A stretch of DNA of 64,000 bases, from IMG/VR virus record IMGVR_UViG_3300023177_000002; one strand, 5' to 3'. How positions within the stretch are numbered: the stretch's first letter is position 1; every line of letters begins with the position of its first letter. The position numbers and the translations under genes are program-made. Of the stretch, positions 418-36,587 are shown in pieces. The stretch comes from a virus. The notes beneath the pieces are model-generated. The model was not told the origin of the DNA. It saw nothing but the letters and a program-made list of their open reading frames with translations, and did no database searches.

Positions 418-431
418 GATTTCTCCTTTCG

Positions 432-513
432 TAGAGGTAGAGGGACTTGAACCCTCAAGGCTTTCGCGGCAGATTATGATTCTGCTGGGATGCCCAGTTA
501 CCCACATACCTCT
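432..513 (-). tRNA. tRNA anticodon CAT with 12-nt variable region (Leu-like scaffold), Met/Ile2-type decoding
   Basis: acceptor AGAGGTA/TACCTCT perfect, stem GCAGA/TCTGC, loop ATCATAA, variable CGCGAAAGCCTT shared with tRNA-Leu(CAA), T-arm GAGGGTTCAAGTCCCTC. Confidence 0.55.
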
Positions 514-527
514 AATAAATATATAAA

Positions 528-1166
528 CTATAGATTGTAAGTAACAATAACACTGCTTTCTTCGGCAGTTGGATTAACATAATATGTAACAACAAGTTTT
601 TTATATTGATGGCTCATTCCAACATTTATAACATGCAATCCTTTTTCAGTATTATAGAAAAAGGCTTTTCCTATGGCGGCACCTATAAAGAAGGATAATT
701 GGCCGGATTCGGCAGGTAATCGGATAATTCGGTTGATTTGTAAGTATTTGCTGTGTGTAGTGTCGTTGTAAACATTACCTGTCGCCATAAATTCAAACCC
801 CGCATAATTGTACCTTCCTCCGATTTCAATAAAATGTGCGCCCAGATTTTTATTGGCAAAGTTCCCATATTTATTGGCGGGATACGGATAGTAATAGTCG
901 CAAAGCCAAATTGACCCGTCATTGACCAAACTCCAAGCGAATGTAACAGTATTTTCGGAGAAGCGTTCAGATATACTTGCATCTGCGGTAATATTGGCGA
1001 TAAAGTTTTTGGTAGAATATTCAAGATAGCCTCCAATTGTAGGTGTTGCACACAGCTGTATACCTTTTATTACATACTGTGATTTGAAACAAGCACCAGA
1101 ATTAAATTGCGCTTGTCCGATAGATATAAATAACAATAAAAATAAAAAAATAAATATGCGTTTCAT
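528..1166 (-). CDS. secreted beta-rich protein with N-terminal signal peptide, function unknown
   Basis: MKRIFIFLFLLLFISIGQAQ signal-like N-terminus, alternating aromatic/polar pattern. Confidence 0.45.
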   Translation of the reverse strand: MKRIFIFLFLLLFISIGQAQFNSGACFKSQYVIKGIQLCATPTIGGYLEYSTKNFIANITADASISERFSENTVTFAWSLVNDGSIWLCDYYYPYPANKYGNFANKNLGAHFIEIGGRYNYAGFEFMATGNVYNDTTHSKYLQINRIIRLPAESGQLSFFIGAAIGKAFFYNTEKGLHVINVGMSHQYKKLVVTYYVNPTAEESSVIVTYNL

Positions 1167-1202
1167 ATTGTTCCTTATATAATGATTATTGTTCGCTATT
1201 TA

Positions 1203-2030
1203 TTAAAGTGTTTTAAATTGTTCTTTTATCATCTTCGCAAATGACGTGAATACTGGCGAAGATGATAAATCTGTTTGCCAGGCCAACCCATTTTCTACAA
1301 GATCATAAGTATGTTTAATATAAGCTCCTGGTATTGCTTTGTTGTTTTCATCACGATCGCGCCCCATTAACCACAGAATATCGGAGACTTTAATAGCTGC
1401 CCGATGATCGTGTGTGATTACTATAATGGTATTTAATTCATGTAGGTTTGCGACTTCGGTTATTAATGTACAGATTTCATCTATCATTAAAGGATCAAGT
1501 CCAGAAAAGGGTTCATCCATCAATAAAAAATGTTCGCTACATAGTAATTGTTGTATGATGGCTATTCGTTGCCGCTGTCCTCCAGATAACTGTGATGGGT
1601 ATAAATGTGTCTGTGCTTTTAAATCAAACCGCTCCAGAAATATACGTGCTTTTTCAGGAGTATCCTTTCTATTTCGCCCAGCCAACAGTAAATTGGAAAT
1701 AACTGTGCGATGTGCGAAGAGAGGATAGTTCTGAGCTACGACGCCAACACTGCCGGGGGTTACTTCTATATTTTTCTCAGTGATACGAACTGTTCCTGTC
1801 GTGGGCTTCTGCAGACCAGATAGTATACGAAATAGTTGAGTTTTGCCTATTCCTGATGGGCCCAATAATCCTACAACTTGCCCATGTCCGACGTTATTTT
1901 TAATTTCGCCGTTTACATTTTTGAGAATCTGTCGATTGCCGTATGTTAAAGAAACGTTTTCTATACGAAGCAAAGTTTCTTTTGTTATCCGTTTCATGTT
2001 CTTTCCCTCGTAATAAATGCGTATGGACAA
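1203..2030 (-). CDS. ABC transporter ATP-binding protein (nitrate/sulfonate/taurine-type)
   Basis: Walker A GPSGIGKT, signature LSGGQRQRIAI, Walker B LLMDEPFSGLD. Confidence 0.85.
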   Translation of the reverse strand: MSIRIYYEGKNMKRITKETLLRIENVSLTYGNRQILKNVNGEIKNNVGHGQVVGLLGPSGIGKTQLFRILSGLQKPTTGTVRITEKNIEVTPGSVGVVAQNYPLFAHRTVISNLLLAGRNRKDTPEKARIFLERFDLKAQTHLYPSQLSGGQRQRIAIIQQLLCSEHFLLMDEPFSGLDPLMIDEICTLITEVANLHELNTIIVITHDHRAAIKVSDILWLMGRDRDENNKAIPGAYIKHTYDLVENGLAWQTDLSSSPVFTSFAKMIKEQFKTL

Positions 2031-2779
2031 ATAGTTTTATTTAGAGCACCGATAGCATAATCAATAAATAAACCTAATACAAAGATAGTTATTTGAATAG
2101 CAAAAATATCTGCTAATTCAAAATGTTTGTTACTATCAAGTAAAAATTTACCTACACCGCCCTCGGATCTAGCAACTCCTTCAACCATAGTAAGCATCAT
2201 CCATCCCATAGCAAAGTTTTGTTGTAATACCTCGATTGCATCGCTAGCGCGCCCCAAAACAATGATTTCAAATACTGCGCGCCATTCGTTCATTTGTAAT
2301 GTACGTGCATAGTCGAACTCACTTTTTGGAATTGCTTCTATAACCGCCATCATTGAAGTGACGAAAAACACGGACATACCAAATACTTCCAACATCAATT
2401 TAAGTTGGTGCCCACCACTAGCGATTAACGTAAATAAAAATGTAAAACCAACTAGTCCTAAAAAACGACCTTTTGTCACAAACATTGCTATAGGTCTGAA
2501 AAAAGGCATTACTGTTGCATATGTCAATCCTAATGAAACGATCAATGTAATACCTATCGCTTGCAAACATAAAATAAAACTTGTGATAAGTTCTTGCCCG
2601 AAACCATTGTACCATATCTTGCTAAAGCTAGCTAAAACTTCTAATGGTTTAGGAACCACGTATGAGGGCCAAATCCACCATACTGCAACAGCTATGGCAA
2701 GTTGAATTGCTGCCATAGAAGTCATAATTGATTTGGACATAACCTTGTTTGGTGAAAACATTTCCAATGTAAGGTTCAT
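1994..2779 (-). CDS. ABC transporter permease
   Basis: multiple hydrophobic TM segments, overlaps ATPase gene in operon arrangement. Confidence 0.7.
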   Translation of the reverse strand: MNLTLEMFSPNKVMSKSIMTSMAAIQLAIAVAVWWIWPSYVVPKPLEVLASFSKIWYNGFGQELITSFILCLQAIGITLIVSLGLTYATVMPFFRPIAMFVTKGRFLGLVGFTFLFTLIASGGHQLKLMLEVFGMSVFFVTSMMAVIEAIPKSEFDYARTLQMNEWRAVFEIIVLGRASDAIEVLQQNFAMGWMMLTMVEGVARSEGGVGKFLLDSNKHFELADIFAIQITIFVLGLFIDYAIGALNKTICPYAFITRERT

Positions 2780-2848
2780 TTTATTCCTTGAATTAGAGCA
2801 ACCGCCAGGATTACTGACGGTTGCCCGAAATTTTTGATTACTTGTGAA

Positions 2849-4639
2849 TTACTCTGTGCCAGTTACTATTTCGACACGTCTGTTTTTGGCACGTCCTGTC
2901 TCTGTATCATTGTCAGCCACTGGCCGGGTTTGACCGTGTGCAACAATATTTAATCGACCTTCCGGGAATAAATCTTGGTATTTCCCTTCAAGCCAATACT
3001 GTACAGCTTGTGCGCGATCTGCCGATAAACGCATATTTCCTTCAGGAGTACCAGTATTATCAGTATGTCCATGAATTACAGCTTTCAATGACAAGCTGAC
3101 CGCAAGCTCATCTTTTAATGCTTCGAGAGTGTTCTCTTGGCCTGCACGTATAGCTGATCTACCGATTTCGAATTGAATACTATATTTACGTTTGCCGACA
3201 ACTTCTTTTAAGGTACTTCCCTTTTTGAACGTAAAACGATCTGCCGTAGAGGTATTTGTGTTGGTTTCTTTTGCAACAGCTAATACATACGAACCATCGA
3301 TAGCGATTTCTGGCGCTGGTACGCTTGGTACAAGTTTTGGATATTGCTGAATTACAACATTACCAAATGCGACGTAGGTAGATTTAAATAATCCCGAAGG
3401 ACCAAACAAAAGTACCATATCTGCAATATTGTTTGGTTTTGAACCGCCTAATTGCACTACTGAACCGTGTTTATTTAGTTCTTCTGTACCATCATGATAT
3501 CGTAACCAGTATTCAGCATCCTTCTCCTTATATACACTGGCCGAGATTTCTGCTGCGCGTTGTTTTGCGGCATCGTATCTTTTTATTTGATCTCCGGCTT
3601 CGCCAATAGCTCGAAGCATTCCTTCAACCATTTTACGATTGTCTTTGCACCACACATCGATCCCAATAATAGCATTTGGCATTTGCCCCGCATATTCACG
3701 TGTGCTTACGATATTTATGATATCTTGGTCGCATTGTTCGACGACATTCACATCACCAGGAGTCCAAGTAACTGTACCTTGAACTTTGATACGTTGTGTT
3801 TTTCCAGTTTTCTTGCCATTAATAACTACTGGACGATCTTCTTCATATCCCGCAATTAATTTAGCTGGCGCATCTAAAAAGTCATTAGCAGCAACCCAAT
3901 TTACAGCATTAGGATCGTAAGTGGTTTCATCAGGATTATTTGGAATGCCGTTGTCACCAGTATATTTCATTGCAATATTCCAGTCGCCATCTCGTAGATA
4001 ACCGGATATGACACAACCGCGCATAGACCCAGGATTCTTTTTCCACTCCGGTGGCCCCATCAATTTATCTTCACCATAAGAATAACCGGCTGAACCTATG
4101 ACTTTAGCACGATATTCAGTGCCGAGTTTTTCTAGTACTGGATTGAGTGCGGCTATAAATTGTGCAGCACCATCTCCCATTACAGCAACAAATGCAGGTT
4201 TTTCTGATGGATATGGATTTCCGTCTTTGAGCTCAGTTGCAAATGCCACTAGGTCTGCCTTCATTTTTTCACAATCATCTTGTCGCTCTAGTGTAATATT
4301 AACCCCGTACTTTTCCATAAGCGACCCCGATGTGGTAACAATACCACCATTGGCAAGCATCAGAGAAAACTGTGAATTCCAGGCCATTATTTCATACTTG
4401 AAAGTTGTGTTTGTAGCAGGTGCTGGGTCTGCCGACGGAAGCGGAAGTTCCGCTGCAATACTTTTTGTATTTGCAATATTTCCCAGATTTACCCTTTTTG
4501 CTACAACTGCCTTGGCGGGTTCTTTGCCGGGAATATATTGGTTAAGAGGTCCAAAAAATAACAAATAGAATAATGTTCCAACTATTGCCATAATAATAAG
4601 CAGCCTTCCGGCTGGGCGTATTCCGGTTCCTTCGTTCAT
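2849..4639 (-). CDS. membrane-anchored substrate-binding protein (NMT1/SsuA/TauA-like) fused to C-terminal OmpA-like peptidoglycan-binding domain
   Basis: N-terminal TM helix; central SBP-like region; C-terminal GHTDNTGTPEGNMRLSADRAQAV OmpA/MotB motif. Confidence 0.6.
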   Translation of the reverse strand: MNEGTGIRPAGRLLIIMAIVGTLFYLLFFGPLNQYIPGKEPAKAVVAKRVNLGNIANTKSIAAELPLPSADPAPATNTTFKYEIMAWNSQFSLMLANGGIVTTSGSLMEKYGVNITLERQDDCEKMKADLVAFATELKDGNPYPSEKPAFVAVMGDGAAQFIAALNPVLEKLGTEYRAKVIGSAGYSYGEDKLMGPPEWKKNPGSMRGCVISGYLRDGDWNIAMKYTGDNGIPNNPDETTYDPNAVNWVAANDFLDAPAKLIAGYEEDRPVVINGKKTGKTQRIKVQGTVTWTPGDVNVVEQCDQDIINIVSTREYAGQMPNAIIGIDVWCKDNRKMVEGMLRAIGEAGDQIKRYDAAKQRAAEISASVYKEKDAEYWLRYHDGTEELNKHGSVVQLGGSKPNNIADMVLLFGPSGLFKSTYVAFGNVVIQQYPKLVPSVPAPEIAIDGSYVLAVAKETNTNTSTADRFTFKKGSTLKEVVGKRKYSIQFEIGRSAIRAGQENTLEALKDELAVSLSLKAVIHGHTDNTGTPEGNMRLSADRAQAVQYWLEGKYQDLFPEGRLNIVAHGQTRPVADNDTETGRAKNRRVEIVTGTE

Positions 4640-5679
4640 GATCGATTCTTTCGTAAATATTTGGATGTTGTGGTTGATTGTGATTTTGATTCTATTGGCA
4701 CTTGTTGCGCCGAGGGTAATTCGTTTAACAAAGGAGCGAGTTCTTCATTACCGACAAGTAATGCTTTTGTGTCGCCTAGCAACAAACTATCTACTTTGCT
4801 TTCCCATAATTCAAGTTCCTTTAATGTGTCTGCTTCAAAGGCCATATTAGCTAGATCAACACCCTCAATAAATGGAGTTGCAACTTCCATGAATTGATCG
4901 ATTTCTCCAAGTTTCTGCCCATAATCATTGAGTAGATTTTCAACTGTTTGATCATATAGCTTTTTATCATCAGATGCATCGCGAATAAAGGACATTGCCG
5001 CAGTCATGGCTTTGTGACCAGTGGTTACTGCCGCGGTTTGTCGCTCGAGAGTATCTACATTTTGTTTGATGTCTTCATACATAAATTCAGAGACTTCTCG
5101 CATCTTGTTCAACATACGCATCAAACTCTCCAGCTTTGTGTAGAGCTGCTGTAACGTGATGTTTGATTCTTTCAACCTTCCAGCACTACGTGCATTTAAT
5201 ACTAATGCCGCTTTTTTACCAGAAGTTTTTGCCGCCTTTGCCATCGAAATAGACCGCTGACGATCTCTCTCGTTGGTGTCAATGGTGACTTTTAATTGCC
5301 CCATCTGACCTCGGAGATTCTTTATTTGTTTTTCAATTAAGACAAGTTTATCAGCTAATTTATCTACATAATTTTTTAATATACCGATCGGATCAATAGT
5401 AATGAAAATCCCAGTGACCCAACGCATAATAAGTTTAAATGAACCAAAAAATAAGGTCCAAAATCGCTTACTTGTTAAGATCGTACCTACAATAACTACA
5501 GTCATAAAAAGAAACGCTGCCGTTAATGTATTTTCTAACAAACCAATAATAAATGGTAATGCTAGATTTAGTCCGTATAAAGCTGCCGCCGCTAATGCTA
5601 CTGCGACAATCATACCAAATGTGCCCTCTTTGCGTTGCCAGAATGACTTCGCGAGACCATCAGATAATCCTGGTGTCAT
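4636..5679 (-). CDS. membrane protein with long coiled-coil region
   Basis: 3 predicted TM segments in first 100 aa then heptad-rich sequence. Confidence 0.4.
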   Translation of the reverse strand: MTPGLSDGLAKSFWQRKEGTFGMIVAVALAAAALYGLNLALPFIIGLLENTLTAAFLFMTVVIVGTILTSKRFWTLFFGSFKLIMRWVTGIFITIDPIGILKNYVDKLADKLVLIEKQIKNLRGQMGQLKVTIDTNERDRQRSISMAKAAKTSGKKAALVLNARSAGRLKESNITLQQLYTKLESLMRMLNKMREVSEFMYEDIKQNVDTLERQTAAVTTGHKAMTAAMSFIRDASDDKKLYDQTVENLLNDYGQKLGEIDQFMEVATPFIEGVDLANMAFEADTLKELELWESKVDSLLLGDTKALLVGNEELAPLLNELPSAQQVPIESKSQSTTTSKYLRKNRS

Positions 5680-6347
5680 TAACGTGCCTTTCTCTTTTGC
5701 GTTGAAGTTGTTTGTGTTGCTAGATATGTTTTTATTTTTGTTTCTTGCTCTCTAATTGCAGTACGTACCGAATCGAGCGTAGCAGTAAATACATCTTTTT
5801 GCGCAGACAATTGTTGCTCCTCTTGTGCGGCACCAACCAATAAATCATTAGCTTGTACTTTTAGCTTCTCGATTTGATCATTTAATTCTGCAATGGTATC
5901 ATCGATCTTTGCCGCTTGATGTCTTTTTGTATCAATACCTTTTTGCGATTCGGACAATTCAGCATCAAATTGCTCCGATGCCGCATCTACAGCACTGAAT
6001 TTTGCGGTAATAGCATTTAATAAAATTTCTACACTTGCTTTTCCTTGTTTTTGCAAAGCAATAAAAGCAGATTTAAATCTAGCAGACTCATCGGCAATAG
6101 CTTCCGATAATGACTCGACAAGACCATAAAAATCCGACAGGACTGATGGCGTTGCTTTATCAACATCTGCAACTATTTGTTGCAGAATTTCTTCATCAAC
6201 TGTCTGACGTCCAGGCTTAATACTTTTTTGTGCGGGCGTTGCCATTTTTTCGGGCGTGGCCAGCTGCTCATCAGCAGAAGGGGTTTCTTGCCCAGAATCT
6301 GGAGCAAAATTCCAGAACGGGGATAGCGCCTTCTTTAGTACATTCAT
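5679..6347 (-). CDS. coiled-coil protein, unknown function
   Basis: ORF with AGGAGA RBS upstream of ATG at 6347; coiled-coil composition. Confidence 0.4.
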   Translation of the reverse strand: MNVLKKALSPFWNFAPDSGQETPSADEQLATPEKMATPAQKSIKPGRQTVDEEILQQIVADVDKATPSVLSDFYGLVESLSEAIADESARFKSAFIALQKQGKASVEILLNAITAKFSAVDAASEQFDAELSESQKGIDTKRHQAAKIDDTIAELNDQIEKLKVQANDLLVGAAQEEQQLSAQKDVFTATLDSVRTAIREQETKIKTYLATQTTSTQKRKAR

Positions 6348-6512
6348 TATATCTCCTGATATAAAGTTTTTTGTAATCGTGGCGGAGCCATATATAATGC
6401 AAAAGTCCTATCAAATGGCTCCGGTGCTCATTGAGCGGAATTGTTTATGACAGGACTGATAATCTCCCCATATTTATTAGGCGTCGAGAGAATAATACGC
6501 CGTCCGGATAAA

Positions 6513-6846
6513 AATTTATCCCTCTGGCAGGACTCAAACCTGCAGCATTACTTTTAGTCTACTGACAGTCAGTTCCGTTTGTAAGCGTTCGACAGGGAGT
6601 AGTAAAGATCCCATTCTAATTTTCAATTGAATATTCAGCCGCTACGCAACTAAACGTTCGTCGCATGACAATTGGTTTAATCGCTTCATCCTAGTTATTC
6701 TTCCAATACACTTGCTCTGAACTTGACCATAAAGAACAGTCTATACTGGTAACTCGATGCTGTCACCTACTAATTCAATCTAGTGACTTAGTAATGTATA
6801 TTAATACGTAACAAATATACATCTCTTTTCATTTCACCACAGAGGA
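6513..6846 (-). ncRNA. candidate tmRNA(ssrA)-like RNA inside structured noncoding region
   Basis: 3' end GCAGGTTTGAGTCCTGC CAGAGGG A resembles tmRNA T-arm plus acceptor; 5' TCCTCTG at 6840-6846 can pair with the acceptor 3' strand; internal frame GAC GAA CGT TTA GTT GCG TAG (..DERLVA stop) resembles ssrA tag region; lacks G3:U70. Confidence 0.3.
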
Positions 6847-6851
6847 ATAAG

Positions 6852-6925
6852 TGTCTGCGACGGGGAACGACCCCGTGTAACTAGTTTTAGAGACTAGTGC
6901 TTATTTCGTTCTCGGCCACGCAGAC
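6852..6925 (-). ncRNA. tRNA-like element with anticodon-like loop CUCUAAA (CUA)
   Basis: GTCTGCG...TCGCAGAC perfect 7-bp acceptor-like closure, 6-bp ACTAGT stem with 7-nt loop CTCTAAA, CGGGG/CCCCG arm with short loop; D-arm poor. Confidence 0.3.
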
Positions 6926-7210
6926 AATAGTTAATTTCGATCGAGCTTACCTTTTGGATCGACCCTGGGTCTAACCCATAATTAGACAGGCTCACCTACG
7001 ACGGGTAAGTATGCGTAGGACTCCCCTGTTCCAGGGGCTTTCGCAATTAACCTAAATCATTCTGGAATGCAGTTCTGGCGAACAGTACTATGATTGTTCA
7101 TAGCTAACCAATAAGGTTAATGGGCAACACGCCAGCCCAAAGGAGGTTAACGAGGCTATGGATCCCCGGCCCATTTGGTGGTTTTAACTGCATAGTTTCA
7201 TTTTTTACTG

Positions 7211-7543
7211 TCACAATAATTTTACATTTTTAAATATATTACCATCGCTCAATACAGCGACGGCAGTTGCCTGATTCATTAAATCAGGTTCTCTAAATAA
7301 AGCATACGGAATACCTCTGACAATTAATTTGTCACGCCATTCTATAAGCTTATCCTCATTCTTTATCCGCAAATATATAAGTGTAGTATTACACCATATA
7401 CCTGGGAATTCTAACATAAATTTTGCTACTGCATGTCCAGCTTGAACTCCAGCGTATGTAAGATTTAAGTCTTCACGCACTAACACATACAGTCTGTTCA
7501 ACTGTTTCATACTGCTCCACAAGTTTTTTGATGTAATTTTCAT
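7211..7543 (-). CDS. peptidyl-tRNA hydrolase, PTH2 family
   Basis: LYVLVREDLNLTYAGVQAGHAV ... LSDG matches PTH2 conserved pattern (VVRxDLxMxxGKxAAQCxHA); start codon uncertain. Confidence 0.6.
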   Translation of the reverse strand: MKITSKNLWSSMKQLNRLYVLVREDLNLTYAGVQAGHAVAKFMLEFPGIWCNTTLIYLRIKNEDKLIEWRDKLIVRGIPYALFREPDLMNQATAVAVLSDGNIFKNVKLL

Positions 7544-7823
7544 CGGGTTCGTTACCTTGTCTTGGTCTTTCGATTTGTTCACGTTTTTTACCACGTTGTA
7601 AAGACATAAATATGTGTTTATGTCTATACTCATAGTGAGCTCTCCAAGGACTTATATTTAATTCCTTAAATTGCTTTTCTAATTGTTCTGGTATTTCTTT
7701 TGGTTTCTTTTTGCCACCGGCATTTTGTGATTGGTAGGCACGTGAATTATAGTTGTCGTAATGAAGAAATTGAGCTAAGATTTTAAGCTCGGATTTTAGT
7801 TGATTGTATTGTTCTTTTGTCAT
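7473..7823 (-). CDS. hypothetical basic protein
   Basis: ORF, partly overlaps PTH2 ORF in other frame. Confidence 0.35.
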   Translation of the reverse strand: MTKEQYNQLKSELKILAQFLHYDNYNSRAYQSQNAGGKKKPKEIPEQLEKQFKELNISPWRAHYEYRHKHIFMSLQRGKKREQIERPRQGNEPDENYIKKLVEQYETVEQTVCVSA

Positions 7824-8292: not shown

Positions 8293-8434
8293 GTCTTGGT
8301 ACGTTTTCCTTTATTTATTTTGAACGGAGGAAGTATAACGTACTACGAAAAGAAACCTCCTTGGTGGACTCGCGGGGCAGTAACTCTAAAATTTTCATTT
8401 TAGACTTGACTATTCCCTTATCTTTTAGTATATT

Positions 8435-8881: not shown

Positions 8882-9446
8882 TAACTCATAGTTTTTATAC
8901 TTTAGAGTTCTATAAGTCGATAGCGAGCTGTTAAATTTCTTTACATACCCGACGGTGTTACCTCGCTATTAGCAGGGGTTTCGCCGTTTGAGCTTTCTTT
9001 TGTCATATATATTTCTATATAAGCGACCTAATACTAAGTCGAACCCCGGTCTTGCATGGATTTAATAAAAATTCATTCACATAGTTAGTTGTATTTTTAG
9101 TCGGTCGTCTGCTACAACTACATACTTAGGACTTACTTGTATTCGGACAAGTGGCCTACATCCCCGTTTATCGCACTCATAGCAATTGGGGCCTTGCTAT
9201 CGAGTTCTCTTGTCAGCGATTAGGCCATTACGGCTACAGGTACTTCGACTAGTGCCAAAGCCTGTTCAAAAGTCATGTCAGATTTTTCTTCTGCACTTAT
9301 TGTTTAAACGGATTTTACGTCATCGGTTCACTGACGCTATGCATTTATACTACATCTCATTCAATCGATTCCTGTCGAGCCCAAATTAATATACTAAATT
9401 AATACATTAAACGCAAGTGCGGTAGAGTCGCCTCTGCCACATAATC

Positions 9447-15976: not shown

Positions 15977-15986
15977 TATAATTATC

Positions 15987-28915: not shown

Positions 28916-28917
28916 TG

Positions 28918-29529
28918 TTAAACCTCTATTGTTGTGTATTGTGCCTTTCCTAAACACTGAAAGGCAGTTTTGTGAATTATAAATTTTCGTGTATGATGGA
29001 AATGACCGAAACACCAATAAGATGGATTATGAAGTTCAAACATGGCTTGCAATAATTGATTTGTTCTGGAAGGTTGATTATACGCATGTTTTCCGTATAA
29101 ATATATCAGCATACTTATCTTTGCTATTTCCGGACAATCATGTGAAAGCACTATTCGTGGTTTTGACACCTCGTATAATTTTAAGGCTTCATAACATTGT
29201 CGCATTGACAGTTCCTCATCATACCACCAAGATACACCAGGAATTCTACTGTCCCAATCTGTCGACCAACCACCCCCTAGATAGAATATATCCCATTCTT
29301 CGATATATCCAAATTCTCCAAGATAATTAGGATGTGTTTTACATAGTTCTGGATTATCATGATTACCGCGGATAAATTTATGTTGAGACGGCAACTCAGG
29401 TAAAAATGTATTTGGGAATCCATGGGCCATATCGCCTAATTGAATTGAAGGTCCATCAATCTTCTTGATCATAGGCAAATATATTTCTGTGTATAATCCA
29501 TGTATATCACCAATTATATGTATTGTCAT
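28918..29529 (-). CDS. calcineurin-like metallophosphoesterase (Ser/Thr phosphatase or ApaH-like)
   Basis: GDIHG, GDMAHG, GNHDNPE motifs. Confidence 0.7.
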   Translation of the reverse strand: MTIHIIGDIHGLYTEIYLPMIKKIDGPSIQLGDMAHGFPNTFLPELPSQHKFIRGNHDNPELCKTHPNYLGEFGYIEEWDIFYLGGGWSTDWDSRIPGVSWWYDEELSMRQCYEALKLYEVSKPRIVLSHDCPEIAKISMLIYLYGKHAYNQPSRTNQLLQAMFELHNPSYWCFGHFHHTRKFIIHKTAFQCLGKAQYTTIEV

Positions 29530-29552: not shown

Positions 29553-30044
29553 TTAGCTAATAGTTATTTCTTTTTTGTCGATGCTTGGACTTGTTTTTGG
29601 AAGTTCGATAGTAAGAACTCCACTATCCATATTAGTTTTGATGGCATCTACATCTACATCGGCTGGAAGCGCCCAGGAACGATGAAACGAGGAAAAATGT
29701 ACTTCTTGAGCAAGATAACGTGTATCTTTCTTAGAAGCCTTCCCAGATTTCTCACCTTTTACAGTAAGAAACTTTCTTCCTTTATCATTTGTAACTTCTA
29801 ATTTAATTTGATCTTTTCCATAACCAGGCAAAGCCGCTTCTATGACAAATTCCTTGTCTGTTTCGGAAATGTTTACTTTTGGAAATGCTCGACCAATAGG
29901 TTCAAAACATAGTTCCAAATTTGCTGCCTCCTCAAAGGCTTTTCTAATATCATTAAGCCAATATTCTATATCAGAGGCAAAGTCTCTTTTTAAAATAGGT
30001 AGCATATATTTTCTCCTTATGAATGAAAATACGCTAAGGGGCAT
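29553..30044 (-). CDS. small heat-shock protein (Hsp20/alpha-crystallin)
   Basis: alpha-crystallin core FVIEAALPGYGKDQIKLEV ... TVKGEK; start trimmed to avoid tRNA-Arg. Confidence 0.7.
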   Translation of the reverse strand: MPLSVFSFIRRKYMLPILKRDFASDIEYWLNDIRKAFEEAANLELCFEPIGRAFPKVNISETDKEFVIEAALPGYGKDQIKLEVTNDKGRKFLTVKGEKSGKASKKDTRYLAQEVHFSSFHRSWALPADVDVDAIKTNMDSGVLTIELPKTSPSIDKKEITIS

Positions 30045-30048
30045 CTTG

Positions 30049-30122
30049 TACTCTCGGCGAGACTCGAACTCGCAACGCTCACGCTTAGAAGGCGCAGCTC
30101 TGTCCAATTGATGTACGAGAGC
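30049..30122 (-). tRNA. tRNA-Arg (anticodon TCT)
   Basis: acceptor GCTCTCG/CGAGAGT, loop CTTCTAA, T-arm GCGAGTTCGAGTCTCGC. Confidence 0.65.
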
Positions 30123-30130: not shown

Positions 30131-30616
30131 TTAACAGGCTAAGTTTATATTCAGATACTCAGAGTCGCCAGTTACATATAAAAAACTGCCGAAGCGCCCC
30201 AATTCAGTGTCTGAGTAATTATCTGCTTCCTCTTCCGTAGCAAACTCTATTTCTCCAGTGATCAATGGCCATTTCCTCGAATGTTGATATACATCTAATT
30301 CTAATATAAGACCAGATTCCAGTGGAAAGTGATAACGTGTTTTGTAAACACGTCGACCAATTGTTAAGGGCCAAATTGCAATAAACACATTTTCATCTAT
30401 TTGACATTGTGCTTCGTCCCGAACTACACCCATTCCTAATTTATAATTTATTTTATAATCTTTTGTATTATCTTCATGTACTCGTTGAGTAAACCTAATC
30501 CCATCTATTGTATAACCCTGCATTAATTTTATTGATTTACTAGCTTGAGCCAGCTGTGGAAGCACAACATTCTCATCAAAGAACAAAAATTTATATTCAA
30601 TTTCTTTTGGTATCAT
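30131..30616 (-). CDS. hypothetical protein
   Basis: ORF. Confidence 0.4.
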   Translation of the reverse strand: MIPKEIEYKFLFFDENVVLPQLAQASKSIKLMQGYTIDGIRFTQRVHEDNTKDYKINYKLGMGVVRDEAQCQIDENVFIAIWPLTIGRRVYKTRYHFPLESGLILELDVYQHSRKWPLITGEIEFATEEEADNYSDTELGRFGSFLYVTGDSEYLNINLAC

Positions 30617-31173
30617 CCAAATTCAGCCCCTTCTTCATAACCTCGTTGTTCATTTTTTCCTATATTGAATATTTGATCTTTTCCTGCACGTACTCGTTTG
30701 GCATATCTATCATATAAAGTAAGATAAACAGCCGCTGCCAAGTTTGTGCAATGTTTCGTGGGTATAGTGACAATTCGATGGCAGTGTTGCATATGTACTC
30801 GTTCAATACCACCATCTTCTGGACCAAAAACATACACTGCATTATATGGATGTTCAAAGTCTAATAAGTTTTCAGAGTTTTCTCGCACTTCAATTGCAAT
30901 AGGAATTGCTTTTTCAAACATATCAAACGGATAATCAAATTGTGTGAGTGTAACTTCTTTATAACCCTTCATCCGTTCTTCTCTTGGTAAACGATAATCT
31001 TTTGTTGGTGTCATTGATACACGATTGCCGGTGTACCAAACCTGGGCTATACCAAAACAAGATGCAGCACGTATTATTGCGCCAACGTTTCTTGGATATT
31101 TAGGATTAATTAGTACGATCGAAGGAGTTACCCCGATCTTCTTATGGTTTTTACCGCAGATTAGTTGTTCCAT
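30613..31173 (-). CDS. SpoU-class RNA 2'-O-methyltransferase (TrmH/TrmL-like, likely tRNA)
   Basis: NVGAIIRAASCFG ... VFGPEDGGI ... IPT...NLAAAVYLTLYDRY SPOUT motifs. Confidence 0.65.
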   Translation of the reverse strand: MEQLICGKNHKKIGVTPSIVLINPKYPRNVGAIIRAASCFGIAQVWYTGNRVSMTPTKDYRLPREERMKGYKEVTLTQFDYPFDMFEKAIPIAIEVRENSENLLDFEHPYNAVYVFGPEDGGIERVHMQHCHRIVTIPTKHCTNLAAAVYLTLYDRYAKRVRAGKDQIFNIGKNEQRGYEEGAEFG

Positions 31174-31781
31174 TAACTATTTATTATCTTATCTGCTAGA
31201 TTATCTGAATATAAAGCATGTACTTTATTTAACCACTGCAATGTCTTAGCTTTTGCCATATTGTAGTGCGTCCCCTCCCCATCTTTGCCGACGACTCCTT
31301 CAAAAGTGATTCCTTCTATTTCATTATAATAGATCTTAGTGGTAAATTCTTTATTCCAGCGATAATATCCAAGATATTTTGGTATCAGTACTTTACCGTC
31401 AAATAATTTTATGAACATCTTAGGAGATACGAATCCTTTTTTATCTAAGGCCACATCAAACACCGTCAGTGTCTTCACATCATCTTTTTCATGTTGTCCA
31501 GCAAAACTTCTTTTCCCAGCAAATTCTGCAAACACTACCGCATGTTCAAATCGGTTATCAATCATAATTTGGGTAAGCGGGAATAACAACGTTTCGTGAA
31601 ATAAAGGAACTGCTGATCCAAATACGTCATCTGATTGGTCAAATAATCTTGTGCGCGTACCGAATTTAAACCAACCACGTTTTTTGCTGTATTCAAAACG
31701 TAAGTTACTACCATCTATTTTATCGAACACGTGTGCATTAAAAGATGGCACATCTTTAGGAATTTCTGGATATTGTTTCAT
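31173..31781 (-). CDS. hypothetical protein
   Basis: ORF. Confidence 0.4.
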   Translation of the reverse strand: MKQYPEIPKDVPSFNAHVFDKIDGSNLRFEYSKKRGWFKFGTRTRLFDQSDDVFGSAVPLFHETLLFPLTQIMIDNRFEHAVVFAEFAGKRSFAGQHEKDDVKTLTVFDVALDKKGFVSPKMFIKLFDGKVLIPKYLGYYRWNKEFTTKIYYNEIEGITFEGVVGKDGEGTHYNMAKAKTLQWLNKVHALYSDNLADKIINS

Positions 31782-32199: not shown

Positions 32200-32274
32200 T
32201 CGGAATAGTGGGGCTTGAACCCACACGATGTCCAGTTCCCGAAACTGGTGGCCTACCAATTGGCCCATATTCCG
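32200..32274 (-). tRNA. tRNA-Pro (anticodon CGG)
   Basis: acceptor CGGAATA/TATTCCG perfect, stem CCAGT/ACTGG, loop TTCGGGA, T-arm GTGGGTTCAAGCCCCAC. Confidence 0.75.
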
Positions 32275-33164: not shown

Positions 33165-33238
33165 TCGGAGTGACTGGACTCGAACCAGCGATCCCATGCG
33201 CCCAGGGCATGTGCGTTAGCCAACTACGCTACACTCCG
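33165..33238 (-). tRNA. tRNA-Pro (anticodon TGG)
   Basis: acceptor CGGAGTG/CACTCCG perfect, stem CATGC/GCATG, loop CCTGGGC (C33), T-arm GCTGGTTCGAGTCCAGT. Confidence 0.65.
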
Positions 33239-34090: not shown

Positions 34091-34757
34091 TTACCATTTA
34101 CCCTTTATCCACGCTTTCAGATCGCGTCGCTCGTTTGTTCTATGGTCAATCCATAAATTATGTTTTACCATATAAGTACGAATTTTTTCTGCTCGATGTC
34201 CCGACCCCATCTGCAATCGTTTATTTTGGGCCGCTTGTTTTTGATGATTATATTTAGCGATACGTTGTAACTTAGAATATAATATTTCAAAAGCAAGTTG
34301 TTTGTTTTGGTACTGGGATCTTTCGGAACCGCAACGAACAGTTAACCCTGATTTATGTTTTAATACAACAACTGTTTCAACTTTATTACGATTCTGTCCT
34401 CCAGGACCGCTTCCTTTAGTGGTTGTAACTTCAACGTCATTAAAATTTATACTGACCTCGGGAAGTTCTATAAGATCCAACACTGCAACTGTTACAACAG
34501 AGGTATGTGTTCGTCCTCGGTTTTCTGTAGGAGGAACTCTGTGCCATTGGTGCGCACCACCCTCGTTTTCAAATAATTCCTTTGCTCTTTGTCCGATAAC
34601 CTGAACTGAAGCAAACCCATCACTAACATATATTGGAATTGCCTCAAAGTCCGTGTTTATACGCGACTTTTAAATAAATACTTAATTGATCCTCGACGAG
34701 GAGTTTTGCATCCGCTCCACCCTCGCCAGCTTGTAATTCCAATAAAATGTTACTCAT
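34091..34757 (-). CDS. class I peptide chain release factor homolog (RF1-like, GGQ and PxT-type motifs, lacks domain 1) requiring +1 frameshift at 34644-34649
   Basis: upstream segment LELQAGEGGADAKLLVEDQLSIY (RF domain 2) ends at CUU UGA; +1 frame continues EAIPIYVSDGF...HQWHRVPPTENRGRTHTSVV...SGPGGQNRNKVETVV...IRTYMV matching RF1 domains 2-4. Confidence 0.7.
34644..34649 (-). other. candidate programmed +1 ribosomal frameshift site CUU UGA (G), identical core to prfB site
   Basis: minus-strand CTT TGA GGC; reading CTTT|GAG GCA restores RF-like frame. Confidence 0.55.
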
Positions 34758-34814: not shown

Positions 34815-34889
34815 GGTGACCGATGGGATTCGAACCCATAACGTACAGGGCCACAACCTGTCGGACTAAGCCAATTGTCCTACGGCCAC
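34815..34889 (-). tRNA. tRNA-His (anticodon GTG)
   Basis: acceptor GTGGCCG/CGGTCAC, stem ACAGG/CCTGT, loop TTGTGGC, T-arm ATGGGTTCGAATCCCAT. Confidence 0.75.
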
Positions 34890-34891
34890 AG

Positions 34892-34974
34892 TGTATCTGG
34901 AGGGATTCGAACCCCCACGCCCAAAGGGGACCTGATCTACAGTCAGGCGAGCCAGCCAGTTGCTCAACAGATAC
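34892..34974 (-). tRNA. tRNA-Tyr (anticodon GTA), type II
   Basis: acceptor GTATCTG/CAGATAC perfect, stem CCTGA/TCAGG, loop CTGTAGA, long variable arm. Confidence 0.75.
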
Positions 34975-35039
34975 ATATCGCGGGTAATTTAAGCGACGTC
35001 AGTGTTTTTAATTTAGCTACTACGTATTTTCATACGCGC

Positions 35040-35112
35040 TAGGACTTGAACCTAGAGTGTTATATTTTTGAGATATATGCTTTAACCGATAACTAACATC
35101 TATCGACCCGCT
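35040..35112 (-). pseudogene. degenerate tRNA-like element (T-arm and CAA anticodon-like hairpin but no acceptor pairing)
   Basis: CTAGGTTCAAGTCCTAG T-arm, TATAT/ATATA stem with loop CTCAAAA; 5'/3' ends do not pair. Confidence 0.3.
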
Positions 35113-35118
35113 AGCTCA

Positions 35119-35190
35119 GCAGGAAGGGCTCGAACCTTCAACATCCTGGTTAACAGCCAGGCACTCTACCGTTGAGTTACTGCTGAATTT
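35119..35190 (-). tRNA. tRNA-Asn (anticodon GTT)
   Basis: acceptor TCAGCAG/CTGCTGA perfect, stem CCTGG/CCAGG, loop CTGTTAA, T-arm GAAGGTTCGAGCCCTTC. Confidence 0.75.
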
Positions 35191-35208
35191 ATTGTATTTT
35201 TTAGTCGA

Positions 35209-35283
35209 CGCGGTAGGACTTGAACCCACATATCTTCCGTGTATAAGGCGGCTGCCGTCACCAATTTAGCTACGCGTCGTTTA
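35209..35283 (-). tRNA. tRNA-like gene with good acceptor/T-arm but defective anticodon stem (possible anticodon TAT; likely degenerate)
   Basis: acceptor CGACGCG/CGCGTCG perfect, T-arm GTGGGTTCAAGTCCTAC, anticodon region GCCGC CTTATAC ACGGA pairs only 3 bp. Confidence 0.4.
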
Positions 35284-35290
35284 TTGTGGA

Positions 35291-35364
35291 GACAACCGGA
35301 ATCGAACCAGTGCATACCCAGGTCTTCAGCCTAGAGCTCTACCGACTGAGCTATGTCTCCATGT
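35291..35364 (-). tRNA. tRNA-Phe (anticodon GAA)
   Basis: acceptor GGAGACA/TGTCTCC perfect, D-arm GCTCAGTCGGTAGAGC, loop CTGAAGA, T-arm ACTGGTTCGATTCCGGT. Confidence 0.8.
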
Positions 35365-35584: not shown

Positions 35585-35658
35585 GCGGGGCGTACGGAAC
35601 TCGAATCCGTACTCTTCTGCGTGACAGGCAGGCGTGTTAACCAATTACACTAACGCCC
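35585..35658 (-). tRNA. tRNA-Asp (anticodon GTC)
   Basis: acceptor GGGGCGT/ACGCCCC perfect, stem CCTGC/GCAGA, loop CTGTCAC, T-arm ACGGATTCGAGTTCCGT. Confidence 0.75.
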
Positions 35659-35941
35659 CAATTGCACCATGTACCAAACATGGAAATAATTTATTATAAT
35701 GACAAATTTGTACGCCCGTACAGGTTAAAATACGATAATAATATTGTCTAGGATCCATTAATAAAGAATAAAGATGTGCAACATCAACCCGCGCCTCGCT
35801 GGCATATCCTATCGTACTTACATAGCAATTCCAATGTTTTTTATGTATAATTTGTAATAAATCGATTTCACTTATTGAGTCAAAAGCAAGCCCTGTTTTT
35901 TGTGAAATCCATTTTTGAAGTTCTTCATCTTGTAAATACAT
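35645..35941 (-). CDS. hypothetical protein
   Basis: ORF. Confidence 0.35.
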   Translation of the reverse strand: MYLQDEELQKWISQKTGLAFDSISEIDLLQIIHKKHWNCYVSTIGYASEARVDVAHLYSLLMDPRQYYYRILTCTGVQICHYNKLFPCLVHGAIGALV

Positions 35942-35946
35942 TAATA

Positions 35947-36162
35947 TTATTCTTCTATAACACCTGTCAAAAGATTAATACCATTTTCATAATCATTTCC
36001 AGATTCTTCGCAGGTTACTATCCACTTTATTCCACAAACCGGACATTTATAAATATATGTATATGCAGTATTAAAGAATGCTTCGGGGTCTGTTGCTTTT
36101 AATTTTTGTCCGCAAGTACATTTAAACTTCGGAGCTATGAAATTCGGTTCTTTCTGTTTCAT
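35947..36162 (-). CDS. small zinc-ribbon protein (start trimmed to avoid tRNA-Glu)
   Basis: CTCGQKL ... CPVCGIKW. Confidence 0.35.
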   Translation of the reverse strand: MKQKEPNFIAPKFKCTCGQKLKATDPEAFFNTAYTYIYKCPVCGIKWIVTCEESGNDYENGINLLTGVIEE

Positions 36163-36165
36163 TAG

Positions 36166-36239
36166 TAGCGCTAGCCGGGATTGAACCGGCCTTTTGACCT
36201 TGAAAGAGTCGTGTCCTAACCAACTAGACGATAGCGCCA
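36166..36239 (-). tRNA. tRNA-Glu (anticodon TTC)
   Basis: acceptor GGCGCTA/TAGCGCT, stem CGACT/GGTCA, loop CTTTCAA, T-arm GCCGGTTCAATCCCGGC. Confidence 0.75.
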
Positions 36240-36514
36240 TTTATTACCGAGCTTACCCAGCTTTTTGTTTTATCCCGTCATTTCTCTATTGGCCTCTACC
36301 CGACCGTTATTAGACAAGAAGCGTGCCGTCCTGGGTCTGTTTGAGTTGCATACTTGCTGGTGGTGCGAACGAATAATGTGATGGCTTTGAATTACGTTCG
36401 GAAAGATAGCCACAAACTTCCTCAGTATATCTTGGTCACATTCTTCTCCCACTCGCTTCTTTGTATGAGCTGAAGTTCCTCACCGTGGTGTAACGGGTTC
36501 TCTTGTAATTTTTG

Positions 36515-36587
36515 TACCGCTAACGAGATTCGAACTCGTGTATTAAGATTGAGAATCTTATATCCTGGGCCACTAGATGATAGCGGC
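36515..36587 (-). tRNA. tRNA-Glu (anticodon CTC)
   Basis: acceptor GCCGCTA/TAGCGGT, stem TAAGA/TCTTA, loop TTCTCAA, T-arm ACGAGTTCGAATCTCGT. Confidence 0.7.

Follow-up and report, generated by a model that had tools for sequence, protein, structure and literature searches.

The tRNA array and its conservation

We analysed a 64,000-nucleotide (nt) stretch of viral DNA, IMG/VR record IMGVR_UViG_3300023177_000002 (hereafter the window, by which the whole stretch is meant), in which an earlier note, made from the sequence alone, had described a dispersed island of about 37 tRNA genes on the minus strand. This number was borne out. With default settings, ARAGORN called 35 tRNAs, all on the minus strand between 431 and 36587, and none elsewhere in the 64 kb. 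The Rfam covariance model RF00005 (gathering score 29 bits) passed 33 tRNAs in a scan of the whole window and 34 with the inclusion of Leu(CAG) at 26565-26645, which scored 47.9 bits when its 131-nt surroundings were searched alone and had been missed in the larger scan because the speed filters dropped it. Two class II serine tRNAs matched the tRNA-Sec model only (46 bits for Ser(CGA) and 29.5 bits for Ser(TGA)), and a class II tRNA with a CAU anticodon at 432-513 fell narrowly below the RF00005 threshold at 27.8 bits. About 37 is therefore a fair count for the window, if the two Ser tRNAs of class II and one weak additional copy are included. A different assembly of this phage (L026) shows that to the left of the window the array goes on for about another 1.5 kb, where it holds a second Val(TAC) and a Ser(GCT) (L026 11491-11565 and 11996-12087, both left of window position 1), and then stops; ThiF, SLT, sigma-factor and DNA polymerase A genes lie beyond its end. 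The whole array, that is, the window plus these 1.5 kb, comprises 39 tRNA or tRNA-like genes.

The tRNA and tRNA-like genes of the array within the window are given below. Unless another source is named, each was called by both ARAGORN and Rfam; where an open reading frame (ORF) follows closely, the distance of its ATG past the discriminator base is stated.

432-513, minus strand: class II (Leu-like) tRNA with a CAU anticodon (ARAGORN default; Rfam 27.8 bits), 71% identical to Leu(CAA)
6852-6925, minus strand: CUA tRNA of the amber suppressor type, loop CTCTAAA (ARAGORN; Rfam 43.6 bits)
9784-9856, minus strand: tRNA-Thr(CGT); ATG of a 110-aa ORF at 4 nt
9879-9950, minus strand: tRNA-Thr(TGT), with C33
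10632-10706: cloverleaf-like element (relaxed ARAGORN only)
11000-11072, minus strand: tRNA-Gln(CTG); ATG of a 95-aa ORF at 3 nt
11080-11153, minus strand: tRNA-Gln(TTG)
12988-13069, minus strand: tRNA-Leu(GAG)
13810-13898, minus strand: tRNA-Ser(CGA) (ARAGORN default; tRNA-Sec 46 bits); ATG of a 104-aa ORF at 1 nt
13903-13989, minus strand: tRNA-Ser(TGA) (relaxed ARAGORN; tRNA-Sec 29.5 bits); orthologues in relatives called at default
15904-15977, minus strand: tRNA-Arg(TCG); ATG of a 118-aa ORF at 1 nt
16553-16626, minus strand: tRNA-Arg(ACG); ATG of a 187-aa ORF at 2 nt
16630-16704, minus strand: tRNA-Arg(CCT)
17151-17224, minus strand: tRNA-Gly(GCC); ATG of a 152-aa ORF at 2 nt, N-terminus conserved in a relative
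19582-19655, minus strand: tRNA-Gly(TCC); ATG of an 83-aa ORF at 2 nt
21392-21464, minus strand: tRNA-Cys(GCA)
21629-21700, minus strand: tRNA-Trp(CCA); ATG of an 83-aa ORF at 2 nt
24582-24654, minus strand: tRNA-Lys(CTT); the upstream ORF's stop codon adjoins its 5' end
24922-24993, minus strand: tRNA-Thr(GGT)
25636-25715, minus strand: tRNA-Leu(TAG); ATG of a 160-aa ORF at 4 nt
26033-26112, minus strand: tRNA-Leu(CAA); ATG of a 61-aa ORF at 2 nt
26565-26645, minus strand: tRNA-Leu(CAG), with C33 (ARAGORN; local Rfam search 47.9 bits); ATG of the dCMP-deaminase ORF at 2 nt
26940-27020, minus strand: tRNA-Leu(TAA)
27401-27474, minus strand: tRNA-Lys(TTT)
27673-27746, minus strand: tRNA-Ile(GAT); ATG of a 72-aa ORF at 2 nt
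30049-30122, minus strand: tRNA-Arg(TCT); ATG of the HSP20 ORF at 4 nt
32200-32274, minus strand: tRNA-Pro(CGG); ATG of a 70-aa ORF at 3 nt
33165-33238, minus strand: tRNA-Pro(TGG), with C33
33761-33835, minus strand: tRNA-Val(TAC), with C33; ATG of a 160-aa ORF at 5 nt
34815-34889, minus strand: tRNA-His(GTG), with T at -1 and C73; the sole solid tRNA lacking the following C
34892-34974, minus strand: tRNA-Tyr(GTA)
35031-35103, minus strand: degenerate tRNA-like gene with CAA in the anticodon position and two acceptor mismatches (Rfam 31.1 bits; ARAGORN relaxed only)
35115-35186, minus strand: tRNA-Asn(GTT)
35205-35279, minus strand: tRNA-Ile(TAT), reading AUA; conserved in relatives
35287-35360, minus strand: tRNA-Phe(GAA)
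35586-35659, minus strand: tRNA-Asp(GTC); ATG of a 77-aa ORF at 1 nt, N-terminus conserved in a relative
36166-36238, minus strand: tRNA-Glu(TTC); ATG of a 71-aa ORF at 3 nt
36515-36587, minus strand: tRNA-Glu(CTC), first of the array in the direction of transcription

The amino acids and anticodons that had been read by hand were right for 33 of these genes, and the CUA tRNA (43.6 bits) had been missed. Of the two genes reported with a CAT anticodon, the one at 35205-35279 has TAT and is a tRNA-Ile, while the one at 432-513 does have CAT, in a class II Leu-like body whose variable arm is that of Leu(CAA). The element at 10632-10706 was rejected as a tRNA, having no Rfam tRNA match even in a 141-nt search. 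U33 is present in 32 of the 36 solid tRNAs; in the other four, Thr(TGT), Pro(TGG), Val(TAC) and Leu(CAG), it is replaced by C33.

The DNA of the window has a G+C content of 36-40%. No nucleotide match to it was found among 50,697 deposited phage genomes, and its large proteins have distant matches at best; for its ribonucleotide reductase (RNR) the identity is at most 41%. The window encodes phage-type genes (baseplate J, a sigma factor, a class II RNR and homing endonucleases), and proteins identical to its own were found in Logan, JGI and ENA assemblies, where the contigs that carry them reach 215,168 nt. Because of these two findings, the sequence evidence identifies the source as an uncultivated phage of about 215 kb, of which the window represents about 30%. 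Five related phages, all of them IMG/VR viral contigs, were located by means of homologues of the RNR, NAPRTase, metallo-beta-lactamase (MBL) and OmpA-like proteins; their proteins are 62-79% identical to those of the window. When a 280-aa island protein was the query, no IMG/VR match was obtained, and RNR relatives at 60% identity or less had no tRNAs nearby. Below, counts over six phages (138 tRNAs) refer to the ARAGORN-default tRNAs of the window and its five relatives, and counts over 63 tRNAs to the window and the first relative.

First relative (L010 + L024): 28 tRNAs
Relative L105: 24 tRNAs
Relative L106: 20 tRNAs
Relative L107 + L108: 27 tRNAs
Relative L109: 4 tRNAs

The order of the tRNAs is syntenic across the five related phages. 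Orthologous tRNAs are 55-92% identical between relatives, and both the cloverleaf and the anticodons are retained. When the stems were compared between the window and one relative, 133 changes were two-sided and compensatory and 34 were one-sided, and 70 pairs were broken, in part owing to alignment slips. Since order is conserved and stem changes are compensatory in spite of the divergence, this comparison indicates that the tRNAs are under selection as working tRNAs, and rules out chance and decay.

Several features of individual tRNAs vary within the clade. A class II CAU tRNA occupies the matching place in L109 (9272-9355), and a class I CAU tRNA is found there in L108 (14160-14236). The CUA tRNA is present at the same position in L109 and absent from L108. 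Over the six phages, 17 of 138 tRNAs lack U33 (mostly in favour of C33), with one to five per relative and varying isoacceptors; the C33 of Val(UAC) is conserved in one relative, and Lys(UUU) is non-U33 in one. The tRNA-His of the window has no encoded G at -1, and three relatives encode a G there. A Thg1-like gene in L106 (12171-12914) starts 4 nt after a tRNA-Cys.

In the 98 called genes of the window, third codon positions are rich in A and U. Of the Ile codons 48% are AUA, for which there is the UAU tRNA; UUA makes up 45% of Leu codons, and AAA, GAA and CAA account for 74-79% of their boxes; U34 tRNAs are present for AUA, UUA, AAA, GAA, CAA, ACA and AGA. A cognate or wobble tRNA exists for every most-used codon except GCA (Ala). 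By standard wobble rules the set would be near-complete, covering all sense boxes but Ala and, unless the class II CAU tRNA serves it, Met. Neither a tRNA-Ala nor a canonical initiator or elongator tRNA-Met was found in the window; among tRNAs of the relatives that have no counterpart in the window are a tRNA-Ala(TGC) (L107 639-713) and an initiator-like tRNA-Met (L109 257-333). To call the island one of translation autonomy, as the earlier note did, is to overstate it, for besides lacking a tRNA-Ala and a canonical tRNA-Met the window shows no aminoacyl-tRNA synthetase, ribosomal protein or elongation factor. That the island is far larger than in most phages is true, though huge phages with up to 67 tRNAs have already been described (PMC7162821).

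A following C and abutting start codons

The most informative features of the island had been overlooked at first reading: the base that follows the discriminator, the start codons that abut on the tRNAs, the amber suppressor tRNA and a tmRNA gene interrupted by an intron. As had been noted, none of the tRNA genes encodes CCA (0/38), and the phage has putative CCA-enzyme genes, two CCA-enzyme-like ORFs being recognised by Pfam and NCBIfam. A C stands directly after the discriminator in 35 of the 36 solid tRNAs, the exception being tRNA-His. Over the six phages this C is present in 134 of 138 tRNAs, and a full CCA in 7 of 138. The tmRNA, unlike the tRNAs of the window, encodes CCA.

Start codons lie at a sharply defined distance from these 3' ends. 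Among the 63 tRNAs of the window and the first relative, 38 have an ATG 1-5 nt after the discriminator, where about 7 would be expected from the background ATG rate of 2.2% per position; not one has an ATG at 0 or at 6-9 nt. The same holds over the six phages, with an ATG at 1-5 nt in 72 of 138 cases, and in 61 of these the ORF that it opens is 40 codons or longer. In the window itself there are 17 such tRNAs, and their abutting ORFs have 61-187 codons. The abutting starts are all ATG, with no GTG or TTG, and the second codon is often AAA or GAA. A Shine-Dalgarno-like motif is within reach at 2 of 18 abutting starts; a clear AGGAG is found at ORFs that start farther from a tRNA, as in those that follow Leu(TAA) and the CAU tRNA. 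At the other end of the tRNAs, stop codons of ORFs fall between -2 and 14 nt before the tRNA 5' ends.

Across the clade, the genes opened by abutting ATGs include those for HU, thioredoxin, ThyX, Thg1, Tpt1 and dCMP deaminase. In these, the Pfam domain begins at or near the first residue: residues 1-111 align to profile positions 1-100 for dCMP deaminase, 1-87 to 1-86 for HU, 2-99 to 3-102 for thioredoxin, 4-162 to 6-175 for Tpt1 and 7-137 to 2-130 for Thg1, and the ThyX domain is matched from residue 14. The JGI and Logan gene callers independently chose the same abutting starts. Since the domains begin at the first residues and independent gene calls agree, these comparisons indicate that the abutting ATGs are the true starts. 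Several JGI and Logan gene calls at these loci overlap tRNAs.

We also looked for transcription signals. Sites resembling sigma-70 promoters are not enriched (54 found, 64 expected), terminator-like sites number 16 for 10.7 expected, and a Bacteroidota-type promoter, TTTG-N17-21-TANNTTTG, has 6 matches for 3.2 expected, none of them inside the island. There is, by these predictions, little sign of internal transcription signals in the island.

The layout of the island is missing from the three phages compared with it. The T5 region (NC_005859, ~28-41 kb) is likewise an array of about 24 same-strand tRNAs, dispersed between small ORFs, genes for homing endonucleases and stable RNAs that resemble tRNAs. 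However, T5 encodes CCA on 22 of 23 tRNAs, against 0 of 38 in the window, and none of its ATG-led ORFs begins within 5 nt of a discriminator: those led by ATG or GTG start at 16-37 nt, the sole closer candidate being a TTG. Spacers of 16-37 nt leave room for a ribosome-binding site, in contrast to the 17 ORFs that start at 1-5 nt in the window. In addition, the T5 region has annotated internal promoters and terminators and no tmRNA. No sequence relationship was detectable between T5 and the phage of the window. Roseophage DSS3_MAL1 (MN602268) shares with the window a dispersed tRNA island, a tmRNA, a nucleotidyltransferase gene and a CUA tRNA, but has CCA on 15 of 16 tRNAs and no ATG within 5 nt of a discriminator. 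In Bacillus phage Nate, 20 tRNAs form a tight tandem cluster with no ORFs between them.

Like the phage of the window, the huge phages of Al-Shayeb et al. 2020 (PMC7162821) have genomes that exceed 200 kb or are rich in tRNAs, with tens of tRNAs, and mycobacteriophages of cluster C1 carry about 33 tRNAs and a tmRNA (PMC10264068). Such phages also have in common with the window a tmRNA, release-factor-like proteins, a peptide deformylase, and tRNA modification and ligation genes (PMC7162821, PMC10264068); unlike huge-phage translation sets, the window has no synthetase or ribosomal protein. Neither starts abutting on tRNAs nor a fixed C after the discriminator is described in the portions of PMC7162821 and PMC10264068 that the search covered. 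Large tRNA sets in huge phages being already known, the new point is the combination of a fixed C with abutting start codons, conserved across a clade.

A parallel lies in mitochondria, in which tRNAs punctuate the genome (Ojala, Montoya and Attardi 1981; PMC8601606). There too, tRNAs without an encoded CCA directly separate the genes of a polycistronic transcript, and excision by RNase P and RNase Z gives mRNAs with little or no 5' leader (PMC8601606). Mitochondrial processing has been shown by experiment, whereas in this phage it is read from sequence; and unlike in mitochondria, only about half of the tRNAs of the window abut on an ORF, and most of the phage's genes are not flanked by tRNAs. 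The likeness, drawn by analogy, would be one of mechanism, not of descent.

A proposed processing scheme and its alternatives

About 37 tRNA or tRNA-like genes, one tmRNA gene and some 60 ORFs share one strand of the window, with spacers of a few bases. At about half of the tRNAs the layout is that of punctuation: same-strand ORFs directly border on them, and neither a promoter nor a ribosome-binding site would fit in between. From such close spacing on one strand we infer long joint precursor transcripts; and because no promoter fits into the spacers, each tRNA would share one primary transcript with its abutting ORF. Because the tRNA genes end with the discriminator and a C, without CCA, maturation would need RNase P, an endonucleolytic 3' cut and completion of the CCA. 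We propose that RNase P would cut the 5' end of each tRNA, that an RNase Z-type endonuclease would cut at or just after the discriminator or the C, and that the phage nucleotidyltransferases would complete the CCA. A tRNA made from a joint transcript calls for a cut between a discriminator and an ATG that are 1-5 nt apart, and the same 3' cut would free the downstream mRNA with a leader of 0-5 nt, so that the abutting genes would be translated from mRNAs with no leader or almost none. That the starts are all ATG and mostly lack Shine-Dalgarno motifs would fit leaderless initiation. As an alternative, tRNA and mRNA could be two fates between which each transcript chooses; we favour simultaneous release.

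That the island is a phage module for tRNA supply and maintenance of translation, transcribed jointly and so arranged that excision of tRNAs also releases near-leaderless mRNAs, is the reading to which we incline, if by a little. The tRNA set would sustain phage translation if the tRNA pool of the host suits it badly, has run low or has been cleaved. We are rather less than evenly persuaded of the sharper proposition that the tRNAs serve as punctuation, with long early transcripts cut at the tRNA ends bearing the fixed C, each single cut yielding a CCA-less tRNA and a 5'-monophosphate mRNA whose AUG comes 0-4 nt from its start and whose translation dispenses with a ribosome-binding site. If it held, a single processing step would couple the supply of tRNA to the expression of about 17 adjacent genes.

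Several points weigh against the processing scheme. What is observed directly is the genes with their conservation and compensatory changes, the lack of CCA, the C that follows and the ATGs that abut; co-transcription, the processing enzymes, the site of the cut, leaderless translation and the purpose of the arrangement are our interpretation of these. A phage RNase Z was looked for in the window without success, and a C right after the discriminator is a poor context for RNase Z. Abutting ORFs are seldom the same gene in different relatives, so that the rule of the junction is conserved and the individual junctions are not. At least one abutting ATG, that of the HSP20 ORF (30044), is possibly unused, as the homologue in a relative and the Logan call begin 13 codons downstream. 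Finally, the comparison comprises three phages, none of which is both CCA-less and dispersed.

One protein had to be considered as a possible RNase Z. The MBL-fold protein at 45323-46072 matched an RNase Z model (E = 6e-10), and was rejected: an RNase Z has about 300 aa, a metallo-beta-lactamase fold and a flexible arm that binds tRNA, for which 249 aa is too short, and the match covered residues 16-60 only. Homologues of this protein carry Anti-Pycsar_Apyc1 in precomputed Pfam annotation.

The same arrangement could have arisen if the tRNAs compensated for codon usage in a compact genome, the closeness of tRNAs and ORFs being a product of compaction and translation proceeding from unprocessed tRNA-mRNA chimeras or from separate transcripts. 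The tRNA set does match the A/U-rich codon usage of the phage, tRNA number rises with genome size in huge phages (PMC7162821), and the window is densely packed throughout, with many overlaps of stop and start codons. Compaction, however, leaves unexplained why an ATG lies at 1-5 nt or is absent, and never at 6-9 nt, why all abutting starts are ATG, and why the C is invariant. Moreover, a start codon 2 nt from a folded acceptor stem would be inside the ribosome footprint, so that translation of an uncleaved, folded transcript is hard to picture; and the set is near-complete, not confined to rare codons. We judge this explanation improbable. A reserve of tRNAs against host defence, which would replace or repair tRNAs cut by host anticodon nucleases and whose altered anticodon loops would make poor substrates, has somewhat more in its favour, while still being an unlikely account of the island. 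The idea has been published for T5 and mycobacteriophages (PMC10264068, PMC11555353), and here non-U33 loops occur in 4 tRNAs of the window and in the 17 already counted over six phages, including Lys(UUU) and the conserved C33 of Val(UAC). RNA ligase, metallophosphoesterase and cREC_REC protein genes stand among the tRNAs, Tpt1 and Thg1 are encoded by relatives, and genes that resemble counter-defence genes are nearby (an Apyc1-like MBL protein, NAD salvage genes and NADAR). Yet most of the tRNAs have ordinary anticodon loops, and the isoacceptors that bear C33 vary between relatives. Both this reserve and a supply of codon-matched tRNAs can be reconciled with the processing scheme.

The CUA tRNA raises the question of whether UAG is reassigned in some phage genes, the island being part of a code-switch system. 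It is well formed (43.6 bits) and conserved in L109, and TAG is the rarest stop codon, ending 8 of 98 genes; but L108 lacks the tRNA, the large genes of the window, including the structural genes on the plus strand, are all intact under the standard code, and reading through the 8 TAG stops would add 1-19 codons only. Recoding is unsupported in the 64 kb, where there are no split genes and no in-frame TAG and TAG is merely rare, and we hold it to be very improbable. Least credible of all, to the point of being nearly negligible, is that the array consists of decaying or selfish tRNA-like DNA, whether pseudogenes or homing-endonuclease cargo, with no role in translation. The degenerate copy at 35031-35103, the element at 10632-10706, a tRNA-like structure at 6510-6850 and the HNH and LAGLIDADG genes in and beside the array might suggest it, but 34 genes score above the Rfam threshold, and order and anticodons are conserved, with many compensatory stem changes, despite the divergence of the tRNAs.

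Large tRNA sets of phages are well known and their expression has hardly been studied. Should the processing scheme prove correct, the island would be a counterpart in a bacterial virus of mitochondrial tRNA punctuation, it would supply natural leaderless mRNAs that arise by processing and not by transcription start, and the output of tRNA would be tied to the expression of neighbouring genes. Gene callers that rely on ribosome-binding sites and leave tRNAs unmasked would then misplace many start codons. Nothing relevant to tRNA punctuation or to processing-derived leaderless mRNAs in phages was found in the literature searched, and such a mitochondrion-like mode of expression appears not to be described for a phage or a bacterium in the searchable literature. 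The clade offers testable handles in the fixed C, the recurrent C33 loops, the conserved class II CAU tRNA, the amber suppressor, a tRNA-His without G-1 alongside relatives that encode Thg1, and a tmRNA gene that carries a mobile intron in a phage. Even should the scheme fail, the island remains a well-documented, conserved and near-complete phage tRNA set.

An interrupted tmRNA gene and the genes among the tRNAs

Left of tRNA-Thr(CGT) lies what is most likely a tmRNA gene with a 659-nt group I-type intron in its T-loop; it is probably the element that the earlier note had taken for a split tRNA. This gene and a second structured RNA are laid out as follows.

9037-9382, minus strand: tmRNA 5' exon, with the acceptor 5' strand, the tag frame, the pseudoknot region and the T-arm to the seventh T-loop base
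8378-9036, minus strand: intervening sequence of 659 nt, group I-type, in the T-loop; missing from the L107 tmRNA
8362-8377, minus strand: tmRNA 3' exon, with the T-stem 3' strand, the acceptor 3' strand with G3:U70 and an encoded ACCA end
8459-8881, plus strand: LAGLIDADG homing-endonuclease ORF in the intron (Pfam LAGLIDADG_1, E = 7e-4)
6510-6850, minus strand: structured tRNA-like RNA of about 340 nt, ORF-free, directly after the CUA tRNA (fold z-score -3.2)

The Rfam tmRNA model matched 9036-9375 with 37.4 bits (E = 1e-11), which is below threshold yet significant, and the match lacks both acceptor strands. The 5' acceptor strand, GGGCUCG, begins at 9382; the T-arm is interrupted after GGGGUUCGACU at 9037 and resumes 659 nt on as CCCCG-CGAGUCC-ACCA (8377-8362). 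When these 659 nt were removed in silico, ARAGORN at default called a 362-nt tmRNA with G3:U70, an encoded CCA and the tag AEEKSDMTFEQALALVEVPVAVMA. An uninterrupted tmRNA with the tag AEEISDMTFEDALALVEAPAVVLA occupies the same place in L107 (20610-20970). This gene can be aligned with the spliced sequence over its full length, which proves that there is an insertion and where it begins and ends. A search with the exact tmRNA 5' end as the query gave no IMG/VR match.

The insert bears the predicted marks of a group I intron. At the 5' splice site, CGACU|UAGUAUUAGGUCG, the preceding U can pair as U.G with the intron sequence GGUCG, forming P1, and at the other end (...UUACUG|CCCCG) the last base of the intron is G. 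A J8/7-P7 segment, AAUAGUC, and a P9 hairpin capped by GAAA are both aligned with high posterior probability. The Rfam Intron_gpI model gave 19.2 bits to the insert, against a threshold of 50, and misaligned its 5' half across the endonuclease gene; the score is low because the model cannot bridge that gene. The LAGLIDADG ORF runs antisense to the tmRNA and is called as a 140-aa gene in five other assemblies. Intron-form tmRNA genes with a group I intron in the T-loop are known from bacteria (PMC11915505). They have in common with the present gene the T-loop position, the U before the 5' splice site and the G as the last intron base, and a minority of the introns hold a LAGLIDADG gene in the P7.1 region (PMC11915505). 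The gene of the window differs in being in a phage, in having its LAGLIDADG gene on the opposite strand, and in its insertion at subsite 8, after the seventh T-loop base, a subsite reported only from Saprospiraceae (PMC11915505).

In the structured RNA at 6510-6850, an 11-bp closing helix stands beside a T-arm-like hairpin, GCAGG-UUUGAGU-CCUGC. ARAGORN detected it only with introns allowed and a relaxed threshold, and Rfam had no match in it or in 6926-7215; the latter interval folded no better than shuffled sequence (z = -1.4). The structured RNA may be a stable RNA of the tRNA-like sort that T5 has, or else a tRNA with an intron.

The protein-coding genes that the earlier note had placed among the tRNAs were in large part recognised by Pfam or NCBIfam, namely the release-factor-like, CCA-enzyme head, TrmH-like, ligase, cold-shock, small heat-shock and SpoT-like genes. 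The peptide deformylase gene is real and lies outside the range claimed for the array, and the PTH2 candidate falls below the Pfam threshold.

7211-7633, minus strand: PTH2-like protein, weak (Pfam E = 0.0045, below threshold)
11158-11724, minus strand: NaMN/NMN adenylyltransferase (NAD salvage)
11721-12434, minus strand: head domain of a CCA-adding tRNA nucleotidyltransferase, 237 aa (Pfam PolyA_pol, E = 2.7e-20)
14150-15364: ATP-dependent DNA ligase (Pfam/NCBIfam)
17618-17989, minus strand: cREC_REC domain protein
22041-23438, minus strand: NAPRTase (NAD salvage)
26119-26562: dCMP-type deaminase (Pfam; NCBIfam)
26670-26918, minus strand: cold-shock domain protein (Pfam CSD, E = 5e-29)
27769-28257, minus strand: NADAR protein
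28199-29017, minus strand: HD_4/SpoT-like hydrolase domain protein (Pfam/NCBIfam)
28918-29529, minus strand: metallophosphoesterase, a possible RNA-end healing enzyme (Pfam/NCBIfam)
29553-30107, minus strand: HSP20 small heat-shock protein (Pfam/NCBIfam)
30131-30616, minus strand: possible CYTH protein, with an N-terminal EIEYKFL motif and no Pfam match
30613-31173, minus strand: SpoU-family RNA 2'-O-methyltransferase, TrmJ/TrmL-like (Pfam/NCBIfam)
31173-31781, minus strand: RNA ligase (Pfam RNA_ligase, E = 3e-7)
34091-34483, minus strand: stand-alone GGQ (RF-1) domain protein (Pfam RF-1, E = 5.6e-27; NCBIfam)
45323-46072, minus strand: Apyc1-like MBL phosphodiesterase
47228-48295, minus strand: second CCA-enzyme-like protein, 355 aa, with an RNA-binding body and an HD domain (including by NCBIfam)
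49516-49959, minus strand: peptide deformylase (Pfam Pep_deformylase, E = 5e-23), outside the range of the array
L107 719-1243: Tpt1 RNA 2'-phosphotransferase of a relative

The head protein at 11721-12434 also matched the NCBIfam CCA tRNA nucleotidyltransferase model with E = 6e-39, below the cut-off of that model. Head on the one hand and body plus HD domain on the other are encoded as two ORFs 35 kb apart, and both are conserved in relatives. The GGQ protein is a putative ArfB- or release-factor-like peptidyl-tRNA hydrolase. No sequence match was found in the PDB for the PTH2 candidate at 7211-7633. The deaminase at 26119-26562 was considered as a TadA acting on Arg(ACG) and rejected; it matches dCMP/ComEB and dCTP deaminases. 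RNA ligase, metallophosphoesterase, the possible CYTH protein and the cREC_REC protein form an RNA-repair-like set, to which a relative adds Tpt1. Together the NAPRTase, the adenylyltransferase, NADAR and the Apyc1-like MBL protein look like a set of counter-defence genes in and beside the island. Further interleaved genes recognised by Pfam or NCBIfam encode VWA and PcfJ proteins and an ABC-transporter/OmpA operon. By annotation, about half of the interleaved genes would serve NAD salvage, nucleotide metabolism, RNA repair or counter-defence.

The signals that bear on the host disagree, the nearest bacterial NAPRTases being from Balneolaceae and the nearest OmpA-like proteins from Thermoanaerobaculia. 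Scans of genome contigs with the 923-aa structural protein and with the LAGLIDADG protein, made with the host in mind, gave no match, and looking for the sample accessions in the literature brought up nothing of relevance. The OmpA-like protein belongs to an operon-like block on the minus strand (528-6347) that encodes a beta-barrel-like protein with a signal peptide, an ABC ATPase, a permease, a 596-aa OmpA-family protein and two coiled-coil proteins; over its full length it is 48-51% identical to proteins of Thermoanaerobaculia. Cargo of this kind is unusual in a phage.

A second gene of the window is interrupted. On the minus strand at 50152-52474, a helicase gene is split into a ResIII part (51827-52474) and a Helicase_C part (50152-50718), with a LAGLIDADG_3 ORF (50960-51820) between them, and in L101 and L103 the helicase is a single 439-aa gene. 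The split is probably the result of another mobile intron or homing-endonuclease insertion.

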